This document shows, piece by piece, positions 2,129-39,506 of a DNA stretch of 64,000 nucleotides (its first letter is position 1; each line of letters starts with the position of its first letter). Both the position numbers and the translations under genes were made by a program. Origin of the DNA: an uncultured Thermococci archaeon (GTDB lineage Archaea; CAYQAE01; CAYVLA01). The notes beneath the pieces are model-generated. The model saw only the letters and a program-made list of their open reading frames with translations. It did no database searches and had not been told where the DNA came from. The DNA is taken from assembly GCA_964549615.1 (NCBI GenBank), contig CAZJVP010000072.1:38803-102802 (forward strand). The letters are read 5' to 3'.

Positions 2129-2459
2129 CCCGGCGGACTAGGCGGGAGGCTAGGCGTCTCCTGTCACCCGAAATCGTCTATACGCGGGGCTGAATGCCGC
2201 GGGGCGGTTCGGCCGCGGGACGTTGGGCCCGGGTCCCGAACGTTGACTCTCCGTCCCTCAGGGTCGGTGGATGTGGGGCCCCCTTCGGAGGAAGGCGGCA
2301 ACCACATTTGCTTTCCGAACCCCACCAGGCCGGGAACGGAGCAGTGGTAGGAAAGACATGCGGCGCTTGAGGGGCAACGGGGACGAGGTAAGGCTCGACA
2401 AGCCCACGTCCCGCGACGGGCCCACCCGCGGATGTTCGGCGGGGTCGAAGCAGGCTGCC
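2113..2459 (+). other. Canonical bulge-helix-bulge (BHB) splicing-endonuclease motif enclosing the SRP RNA
   Basis: Outer 10-bp helix ggcagcttgc(2113-2122)/gcaggctgcc(2450-2459). Central 4-bp helix ggcc(2123-2126)/ggtc(2443-2446). 3-nt bulges aac(2127-2129) and gaa(2447-2449), each 3' of the central helix. Inner helix ccg(2130-2132)/cgg(2440-2442). Confidence 0.8.
2129..2448 (+). ncRNA. ffs: Archaeal signal recognition particle (7S/SRP) RNA
   Basis: Alu domain: helices 3 and 4, UGU motif, loop-loop complementarity taggcg/cgtcta. Long helix 5 (gcgggacgttgggc/gcccacgtcccgc). Helix 6 ccttc-GGAG-gaagg (2282-2295). Helix 8 SRP54 site ccaggccgGGAAcggagcag (2325-2344). Confidence 0.93.
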
Positions 2460-4058
2460 CGATGGACGGACGGATGGACATGGGAAGGGACGGAGTTCTA
2501 CGTCTCTGACTACAACGACATCGCCCTCGAAAGGGCAAGGCTGCCCGAGCGAGTAGCGATTTTTGACACGACGCTCAGGGACGGCGAGCAGACGCCGGGC
2601 GTCTCCCTGACCGTTGACGAGAAGATACGGATCGCTTGCGCGTTAAATGAACTGGGCGTGGACACCATAGAGGCCGGATTCCCAGCAACATCGGAGGGAG
2701 AACTGAAAGCCATATCCGAAATAGCCGGCCTTGGGCTGAAGAGCGAGATCTGCGCCCTGGCACGGTCCAACCAGAAGGACATCGACCTAGCGTTGAGCTC
2801 CGGGGTCAGCTGCATCCACACGTTCATCGCGACCTCGGACATACACCTGAAACACAAGTTGAAGATGACGAGGGATGAAGCCCTGCAGAAGGCTGTCGAG
2901 ACCATAACATACGCCAAGGAACACGGGGTCGTCGTTGAGTTCTCTGCCGAGGATGCGACGAGGACCGAGCTTGGGTACCTGCTCAGGGTCTACTCAGCTG
3001 CCCAGGACGCAGGCGCTGACAGGATAAACGTCCCGGACACGGTGGGCGCCATGATACCGAGGGCTATGGGGTATCTGGTTGGCAGGGTATGCGAGGCCGT
3101 GAAAGTTCCCGTCTCTGTGCACTGCCACAATGATTTCGGGATGGCCGAGGCGAACTCGCTGGCATCCGTGGAGAACGGCGCGACACAGGTTCACGTCACC
3201 GTCAACGGTCTGGGGGAGAGGGCGGGAAACGCCTCCCTGGAGGAGGTGGTGATGTCCCTGCACTCCTTCTATGGCATCAAGACCAGCATCGTGACCCAGA
3301 AGATCTGTCCGACGTCCCAGCTCGTCTCGCGCCTGACGGGCATTCCCGTGCAGCCCAACAAGGCAATCGTGGGCGAGAATGCCTTCGCGCACGAGTCCGG
3401 CATACACGTCCACGGGGTGCTCGAGTCCGCAGCGACCTATGAGCCGCTGATGCCCGAGATGGTCGGGAGCACCCGGCGGATCGTCCTAGGCAAACACACG
3501 GGAGCGCATGCCATATCGGCCAAGCTCGGCGAGATGGGCATCAAGGCCACGGAGGCGCAGGTATCCGAGATCGCCCAGCGGGTCAAGAAGATAGGCGACA
3601 TGGGCAAGGGGATCACCGACGCCGACCTCATGGCCATAGCGGAGGCCGTCATAGGCAAAGTCCCAGAGGGCAAGCGAACGCTGGAGCTGGTGAACCTGAC
3701 GGTGGTAACCGGCGACAGGACCATACCTACTGCATCACTGGCGCTCATCGTGGACGGCAAGCGAGTTGAAGGTGCCAGCATAGGGGACGGCCCTGTGGAC
3801 GCTGCGATAAAGACGATAAAAGATGTCATCAGGGATTTTGGCAAGGTCGAATTGAAAGAGTACCGGCTCGAAGCCATCACCGGAGGTAGCGATGCGGTTG
3901 CGGAGGTCACAGTCAAGGTGATTGACGATCTGGGCAACCTTGCGACGGCCCGGGGCGTTAGCACCGACATAGTCATGGCGAGCGTTGAGGCCATGATTGA
4001 AGCGGTCAATAGGCTGTTCGCCAAGAGAGGGAAGGAAGGAGGAAAGCCAAGTGGCTGA
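2449..4058 (+). CDS. leuA: 2-isopropylmalate synthase / citramalate synthase (LeuA/CimA family), main exon
   Basis: DTTLRDGEQ, HCHND, GLGERAGN and HESGIH motifs; C-terminal regulatory domain (GDGPVDA, EAITGGSDA); directly upstream of ilvB. Start codon unresolved (see findings). LeuA versus CimA is not distinguishable by eye. Confidence 0.85.
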
Positions 4059-38411: not shown

Positions 38412-39506
38412 TCAGATGTTCGTCCGGATTCCTGCAAGGGATGTCCTGCATCGGTTGTAATGACAGAAGTTTTGCCAGGATACATCAGGCGGGATCCAGT
38501 GATCGGCGTGCGGAATGTACCCCCCACTCTCCACGACCGGCCAGACTCTCTTTACCTCCTTCTCGATCTCGCACTTGCCCTTTGACAGTGCGCGCTTGTC
38601 GATGCCTCCCATCATCACCAGTCTCTTTCCGTACTGCTTTCGAAGCGAGCAAACGTCCATGTTTGCCTGGACCTCGAGCGGCCAGATCCCGTTCAGGCCC
38701 GCCCGCAGCCAGTACGGTATGAGCGCACGGACGTCGCCATCGCTGTCGACGCATATCAGGTCCACGCCCCTGGAGCGCAGGTACTCGCACACGATCTCGT
38801 AGCGCGGAACCATGAATTCCTTGAACAGCTCGATGCTGATCAGCGGCCCGTTCCTGTATGCCATGTCCTCCCAGAAGCCGAAGGCGTCCAGGTCGATGTC
38901 GTCCAAGACCTTCTTGAGGATCGCGATGATGACCTCGACTCGCTGATCCATCATCCTCTCCACGAACTCCGGCTTCTCGTAGAAGGCCCTGCAGAGGTTC
39001 TTCAGCCCAAGCAGGTTGCGAAGCGGTCCGAAGAATCCACCCCACCTGCCTTGGAAGTACATCAATGGCGCCTTCCTATGTTTCCAGTCCTTGACCATTG
39101 AGTCCCAGTTTGGTGGAAACCTTTGCTTGAGCTTCGGGGCCAACCTCTTTCTAACGAGACGATCGAAGTCCTCCTCGGTCTCCACCGGAAACTTCACGAA
39201 CTGGGGCATGCTCGACTGCTCCCTGCCGCCCTTGAACTCCCTCCTAACCACCCCGTCGGGGTCGACGTACAGCAGAGTCTCCCCGTCATCCTGGATTACC
39301 TCGCGCGCGAACGGAGGACAGGGACCCGCGGAAACCGGAACTCCGAGGATAGGATCGAGACAAAAGATCTCGCCGATCGGCTTGCCGTCCCATCCTTCAC
39401 GACGCCATCTCTCAGCGGTCTCTGGCCACATCCCTTCGTCCGAGATGAAAGGGCGATCGGGCTTCTCGAAGTGCGTGACAGCACGATATCTCTCTCGCGC
39501 GTCCAT
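38412..39506 (-). CDS. Uroporphyrinogen decarboxylase (URO-D)-like protein
   Basis: RER...KPDRP, WPETAERW, WEDMAYRNGPLIS, VDSDG, PLEVQA, GGIDKR, GGYIPHADH. Confidence 0.8.
   Translation of the reverse strand: MDARERYRAVTHFEKPDRPFISDEGMWPETAERWRREGWDGKPIGEIFCLDPILGVPVSAGPCPPFAREVIQDDGETLLYVDPDGVVRREFKGGREQSSMPQFVKFPVETEEDFDRLVRKRLAPKLKQRFPPNWDSMVKDWKHRKAPLMYFQGRWGGFFGPLRNLLGLKNLCRAFYEKPEFVERMMDQRVEVIIAILKKVLDDIDLDAFGFWEDMAYRNGPLISIELFKEFMVPRYEIVCEYLRSRGVDLICVDSDGDVRALIPYWLRAGLNGIWPLEVQANMDVCSLRKQYGKRLVMMGGIDKRALSKGKCEIEKEVKRVWPVVESGGYIPHADHWIPPDVSWQNFCHYNRCRTSLAGIRTNI

Follow-up and report, generated by a model that had tools for sequence, protein, structure and literature searches.

Circular SRP RNA made at a BHB motif has previously been described only in Thermoproteus tenax and Thermoproteus uzoniensis, two species in which the SRP RNA gene is permuted and the ring repairs it (Plagens et al. 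2015, PMC4731332). In archaeal pre-16S and pre-23S rRNA, BHB processing stems give rise to circular pre-rRNAs (PMC7714728), and circular 23S rRNA is present in ribosomes according to PMC12918454, a paper that makes no mention of SRP RNA. A 46-nt BHB intron lies in the 5' UTR of the Haloferax volcanii HVO_1309 mRNA (Schwarz et al. 2020, PMC7714728), and a box C/D guide RNA is nested in the intron of archaeal pre-tRNA-Trp (Yoshihisa 2014, PMC4090602). Circular segments of 7S RNA have been reported as minor species (Danan et al. 2012, PMC3326292), and SRP-associated junctions or circRNAs are noted 'to a lesser extent' in PMC12558985 and in a preprint on Thermococcus barophilus (10.64898/2026.03.23.713588). 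Searches of the literature outside subscription journals and supplementary circRNA tables gave no description of a colinear SRP RNA that is freed and closed at a BHB.

The DNA under study is a stretch of 64,000 nucleotides, hereafter the window, from the genome of an uncultured Thermococci archaeon (GTDB lineage Archaea; CAYQAE01; CAYVLA01; assembly GCA_964549615.1, contig CAZJVP010000072.1, forward-strand positions 38,803 to 102,802), and the window features described here all lie on its + strand. The SRP RNA proper, comprising the Alu domain and helices 5, 6 and 8, was located at 2131-2441 by an untruncated match to RF01857 (Archaea_SRP) of 186.1 bits, compared with a gathering score of 96.5. 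Model positions 1-317 of 317 align colinearly over this interval, so the domain order is normal and the gene is non-permuted; a Thermoproteus-type permutation, in which the 3' part is encoded before the 5' part, is not found in it. A first-pass annotation made from the letters of the window had read the order as Alu, helix 5, 6, 8 and had placed a circular RNA at 2129-2448; the colinear match bears out that order, and its full-length boundaries fall inside the proposed interval. The whole 3.21-Mb genome (99.46% complete) contains one copy of the gene. The family considered below consists of four genomes (G000-G003) and two metagenome contigs (L035 and L036) retrieved with a 25-base SRP RNA word, giving six loci that were aligned; each carries a single, non-permuted SRP RNA copy, and the genes of G001-G003 are colinear in the same way as that of the window.

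Read from the sequence, the leader and trailer of the SRP RNA form a canonical helix-bulge-helix-bulge-helix (BHB) layout. The outer helix is 10 bp long, with its 5' strand at 2113-2122 and its 3' strand at 2450-2459, and the core occupies 2122-2129 (5' half) and 2443-2450 (3' half). The locus has the canonical hBHBh' form, with a 4-bp central helix and two 3-nt bulges on opposite strands, and this form can be drawn in two registers. In register 1 the central helix is 2123-2126/2443-2446, the bulges are AAC at 2127-2129 and GAA at 2447-2449, and the inner helix pairs from 2130/2442 inwards and runs into SRP helix 1. In register 2, which lies one base over and was also returned by the strict BHB scan, the 5' strand of the outer helix is 2113-2121, the central helix is 2122-2125/2444-2447, the bulges are 2126-2128 and 2448-2450, and the inner helix is 2129-2132/2440-2443. 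Three central base pairs are common to both registers. The first two anticodon bases sit within the central 4-bp helix in the account of Yoshihisa (2014, PMC4090602), and this placement together with the canonical 37/38 splice site sets the cut after the second base of each bulge. Register 1 is thus predicted to be cut after 2128 and 2448, releasing a piece of 320 nt (2129-2448), and register 2 after 2127 and 2449, releasing a piece of 322 nt (2128-2449). The cut sites proposed in the first-pass annotation, at 2129 and 2448, are the canonical cuts of register 1; its length of 320 nt holds for that register, while the second and equally possible register predicts 322 nt.

Folding of the natural precursor with each register enforced gave -197.0 and -196.0 kcal/mol, compared with -198.9 kcal/mol for the unconstrained fold, and an unconstrained fold of 2095-2475 regains the 10-bp outer helix. 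As a control for chance, both 60-nt flanks were subjected to dinucleotide shuffling; a strict BHB with an outer helix of at least 10 bp arose in 2 of 5000 shuffles.

The BHB motif is present at the SRP RNA flanks of all six family loci, with compensatory changes. The strict scan finds the same register in G000, G001 and G003, with cuts at -2/+7 of the Rfam match and a piece of 320 nt; G002 has the same motif with one extra base, that is, a 4-nt 5' bulge, and L035 and L036 show the same flanks in an alignment made by eye. Across the six-sequence alignment, 95.7% of the 138 cells are paired in register 1, and offsetting the 3' partner by 1-3 columns lowers this proportion to 24-48%. Paired cells make up 100% of the central helix (register 1), 93.3% of the outer helix and 96.3% of the inner helix/SRP helix 1. 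Both bases have changed at 4 of 23 pairs; two of these belong to helix 1 and two to the outer helix, where L035 has A-U for G-C and G003 has U-A for C-G. The observed covariation score was attained by none of 500 shuffles, counts that are indicative rather than probabilities given six related sequences. The G at 2447 on which register 2 depends is found in three of the six sequences.

To place the motif among other archaea, the same strict scanner was applied to SRP RNA loci with 90- or 100-nt flanks from more than 100 families (86 non-family loci and 28 further ones, 114 together, three of them with N or incomplete flanks). None of the 114 showed a convincing BHB, although the strict scan would miss relaxed forms such as that of G002. 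In the genome set used, the class and phylum of the window organism comprise five genomes only, namely the four of the family and G004 of the sister family, and the SRP RNA of G004, the one genome of that family, has no such motif. The best candidate in the survey, in the AT-rich small-genome archaeon G046 (L042/L101), combines an 8-bp A/T outer helix with a predicted 305-nt piece and is probably due to chance: its inner helix stands 15 unpaired bases away from helix 1, its free fold lacks the motif, and the remaining 29 loci of that order offer no counterpart. A GGGC/TAG/GC pattern (cut +10/-2; L008, L028, L024, L009, L006 and L052) marks a set of strict-scan hits that fall within the SRP Alu domain and result artefactually from the GC-rich helix 1, and the hits at L017/L099 (cut +9/+46) are at positions internal to the SRP RNA. 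In the course of the survey, SRP RNA matches were missing from 4 of 151 archaeal genomes (G021, G087, G115 and G149; 91-99% complete) in a search that permuted or unusual genes would escape. Two matches were unusually long and may contain insertions (G045:C44:48745-49128, L099, 384 nt; G004:C15:932-1275, L023, 344 nt), and G064 has two SRP RNA copies with equal scores on contigs C8 and C9.

RNA from the locus was sought in 24 public runs, among which 11 microbial-mat metatranscriptomes contained 0.24-0.42 of the sampled words. Four of the runs (X1-X4) were analysed; they represent four samples of one habitat and year and may belong to one campaign. The evidence consists of assembled contigs rather than reads, and so shows that junction words exist and not the share of closed versus linear molecules. 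In all four runs, contig cover is confined to about 2127-2448. Each contig aligns to the window as two pieces that overlap by 30 nt, which corresponds to once round a circle plus 30 nt. The contigs of X1, X3 and X4 are 352 nt long with a period of 322 nt, and their joint is tabulated as '2448 to 2127, goes back 322, both = 1', with 150, 31 and 82 letters on the shorter side, respectively. One ambiguous A makes this joint equivalent to 2449-to-2128, the canonical product of register 2. The contig of X2 is 350 nt long with a period of 320 nt, which corresponds to the 2448-to-2129 junction of the first-pass annotation; this junction has 27 aligned letters on its short side as against the 31-letter bridging rule, and is absent from the joint table.

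The two junctions seen in RNA, 2449-to-2128 and 2448-to-2129, therefore coincide with the predicted BHB cut sites, and the part of EndA in making them is inferred. A back-splice junction had been named in the first-pass annotation as the test of circularity, and a closed junction with at least 31 letters on each side is present in the contigs of X1, X3 and X4. Its central proposal, a covalently closed ring excised at a BHB, is thus supported by wrap-around contigs whose joint lies at the canonical cut sites. The proposed size fared less well: 320 nt agrees with the period of X2, weakly supported as that is, and 322 nt is the commoner size, found in three of the four runs. The excised and circularised RNA is accordingly given here as 2128-2449 (322 nt) or 2129-2448 (320 nt). 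The two sizes may reflect alternative cutting of one precursor or differences between strains. In circular folds both rings retain the SRP fold, and the junction lies in a loop of 5 nt (320-nt ring) or 7 nt (322-nt ring) on a 4-bp stem that caps helix 1. For the 320-nt ring, the hairpin that the first-pass annotation had described at the joined ends, a stem of 2129-2132/2440-2443 with loop 2444-2448, is visible both in the sequence and in the circular fold.

The contigs match the window at 95-99%, and C2403T and G2408A occur in all four runs; one or two further differences in the mat SRP RNA lie close to its 3' end. Its source is a distinct close relative that is absent from the six genomic loci and known from the ring sequence alone. 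A ring of SRP RNA exists, then, in the RNA of a close relative of the window organism. No contig of X1-X4 falls on the flanks at 1950-2126 or 2449-2564, which is uninformative on co-transcription or exon ligation. Contig matches at 2565-2610 in X1-X3 were set aside as a conserved leuA stretch from other organisms, whose contigs diverge from the window on both sides of it.

Upstream of the SRP RNA, the alignment of the six loci contains a single conserved block, a 17-nt island resembling BRE/TATA at 2030-2046, that is, at -101 to -85 from the SRP RNA, which by its form would serve as a promoter. Nothing promoter-like abuts the SRP RNA 5' end or lies between the SRP RNA and the leuA-type gene that follows it, and no conserved terminator separates the two. 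A scan for sigma-70 promoters gave no result, that model not being applicable to archaea. A terminator-like site at 2540-2557 was rejected; it lies within the leuA reading frame, and its T-run is missing in G001 and G002. The interval 2047-2112, poorly conserved, would form the leader or 5' exon, its existence as RNA following from the position of the promoter-like box. By eye, the leader contains a 7-bp hairpin (2068-2074/2095-2101), with counterparts of different sequence at other loci. Since the promoter-like box lies about 100 nt upstream and no terminator precedes leuA, the arrangement suggests a leuA-type mRNA whose leader gives up the SRP RNA by excision, and the simplest reading is a single transcript of leader, SRP RNA and leuA.

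The leuA-type synthase gene has a putative start at 2490 and extends to 4058 (Pfam HMGL-like, HCS_D2 and LeuA_dimer). It lies directly 3' of the SRP RNA at all six loci, with its conserved N-terminal region starting about 40 nt downstream. The same arrangement is implied by three further database proteins (P0002, P0005 and P0010), whose annotated N-termini arise by reading through the 3' part of the SRP RNA. Mechanical and public gene calls in this family extend the LeuA frame upstream over the 3' third of the SRP RNA (2271-2490 in the window), an extension that amounts to a false N-terminus and a hidden RNA gene. From the nearest in-frame stop to the catalytic motif, the leuA-type frame contains no ATG, GTG or TTG at five of the six loci. 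A short ORF of nine codons (M-x-RDGVLRL-stop; 2480-2509), conserved at all six loci, lies one base out of the leuA frame and overlaps the leuA N-terminal coding region (window 2480-2560; L015, L011, L013, L035, L036 and L133). A single internal site varies in it; the change is silent in the short frame and gives E, G or V in the leuA frame. The G004 orthologue keeps the overlapping short ORF and has an in-frame GTG where the family has GGG, and homologues elsewhere start 3-5 residues ahead of a conserved hexapeptide, in one frame. Programmed +1 frameshifting and non-AUG initiation are candidate explanations for a leuA gene lacking a start codon.

Enzymes of the kind needed for excision and closure are encoded in the genome. 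Two proteins with an EndA domain were found, a 393-aa paralogue with two catalytic-domain stretches and an N-terminal domain, and a 403-aa paralogue with one catalytic domain; they lie on other contigs of the same genome (L031:1456-2637 (-) and L032:1195-2406 (-)). A full-length RtcB is also encoded (607 bits).

We consider it probable, at roughly 75%, that the SRP RNA ring is produced by BHB excision from a transcript running towards leuA, with EndA cutting and RtcB closing in two registers. On this reading the SRP RNA gene would have neither a promoter at its own 5' end nor a terminator of its own; transcription would begin at the box about 100 nt upstream and continue towards the leuA-type gene. 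Pairing of the leader (2113-2126) with the trailer (2443-2459) would form a BHB continuous with SRP helix 1. The tRNA-splicing endonuclease, presumably EndA, would cleave after the second base of each 3-nt bulge, and a ligase, presumably RtcB, would seal the ends of the excised piece into a closed ring in which helix 1 is capped by a loop of 5 or 7 nt. Registers one base apart would yield rings of 320 nt (2129-2448) and 322 nt (2128-2449), the two sizes following from two near-isoenergetic BHB registers. The flanks would be rejoined into the leader of the leuA mRNA.

The ring could instead be a processing intermediate or a minor by-product, with EndA trimming the ends and the working SRP RNA remaining linear, either unligated or reopened. 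We regard this as unlikely, although it has points in its favour: contigs give no proportions of closed to linear RNA, minor circular SRP/7S RNAs of no known function occur in several archaea (PMC3326292, PMC12558985 and the T. barophilus preprint), a non-permuted SRP RNA with its ends in helix 1 would also be workable as a linear molecule, and the reopening of archaeal 16S rRNA rings indicates that a ring need not be an end product. At this locus, however, the assembler closed the circle in four of four runs, with no flank tip or alternative end surviving, the junction falls in a hairpin loop where it should do no harm, there is no sign of a reopening site, and the BHB-made ring is the functional form in Thermoproteus as described in PMC4731332.

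Two other readings have far less in their favour. That there is no ring at all, and that the contigs stem from template switching, misassembly or a tandem or permuted DNA copy in a mat organism, is a thought raised by the nature of the data, which are contigs from mixed-community metatranscriptomes and from RNA libraries that can contain DNA. We consider it very improbable, given a joint that lies exactly at both canonical BHB cuts in three runs and whose shorter side reaches as many as 150 letters, a complete lack of flank cover that argues against DNA, single and non-permuted copies at six of six genomic loci, and the absence of any 30-nt repeat common to the two ends that could close the graph by chance. 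An exact joint at the predicted cuts with no cover of the flanks is hard to explain by DNA, a tandem copy or template switching. Least probable of all, to the point of being nearly negligible, is that the SRP RNA is a coding-sequence intron whose loss would bring a start codon located upstream into frame with the leuA-type gene. G001 and G003 have stops in frame after the predicted exon junction and ahead of the conserved N-terminus, and these rule out a splice of the cbf5 type, in which one frame is joined in all members; a leuA-frame stop, TGA, sits across the conserved ATG of L035 and L036 (by eye), and homologues elsewhere begin 3-5 residues before the hexapeptide. What speaks for such a splice is that the frame is open across the predicted junction in G000 and G002, and that five of the six loci offer the leuA frame no ATG, GTG or TTG 3' of the SRP RNA.

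With BHB excision of a closed ring as the preferred reading, we infer that the ring is the mature form of the SRP RNA. A further step, that it is the only working SRP RNA of the lineage and arises as an intron of tRNA type within the leader of the leuA mRNA, is put forward tentatively, at somewhat under even odds. If this is true, a single promoter serves both a protein-coding mRNA and the essential housekeeping RNA carried within it, a situation comparable to that of snoRNAs housed in eukaryotic introns; the data point towards such sharing of a transcription unit with a gene of amino-acid biosynthesis. The tentative step would also make the colinear ring gene the intermediate expected before a Thermoproteus-type permutation, since the gene is still colinear, with circularisation coming first and permutation later. 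An essential and abundant RNA would join the short list of archaeal splicing-enzyme substrates that are neither tRNA nor rRNA. Contigs that wrap around, with a length equal to the circumference plus 30, offer an inexpensive way of spotting RNA rings in public assemblies.

Compared with the systems described at the outset, the minor SRP/7S circles of Sulfolobus, Halobacterium, Haloferax and Thermococcus resemble the present case in having closed junctions in or around the SRP RNA in RNA-seq, and differ in that the published descriptions tie no BHB to them and describe no dependence on a longer precursor (PMC3326292, PMC12558985 and the T. barophilus preprint, as far as their accessible text goes). 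The pre-tRNA-Trp intron likewise delivers a functional non-coding RNA as a BHB intron of a host transcript, but there the host is a tRNA and the cargo a small guide RNA (PMC4090602). In HVO_1309, as proposed here, a BHB-bounded piece leaves an mRNA leader rather than coding sequence, and it is found as a ring; it is, however, a short intron with no known function as opposed to an essential housekeeping RNA, and the exon side of the window locus is known from DNA alone (PMC7714728). Pre-rRNA processing shares with the pathway proposed here the release of a stable RNA with paired ends by EndA at a leader-trailer BHB, followed by closure, whereas rRNA rings are mostly reopened and no reopening is evident for the SRP RNA of the window (PMC7714728).

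The closest likeness is to Thermoproteus, in which leader and trailer of the SRP RNA precursor also form a BHB, endonuclease and RtcB are also invoked and the product is a closed ring (PMC4731332). There the gene is permuted, its ends lie near an S-domain loop and the ring restores the molecule; the gene of the window has the normal order with its ends within helix 1, and its connectivity therefore does not depend on a ring. The leader measures 23 nt in Thermoproteus and presumably about 60 nt in the window; in the latter the trailer leads on into a protein-coding gene, and the two lineages are different. With RNA support, the same machinery appears to act in an unrelated and uncultured lineage whose SRP RNA gene keeps the normal, colinear order; this suggests that circularisation of SRP RNA can precede and permit permutation of its gene and need not be a repair device.
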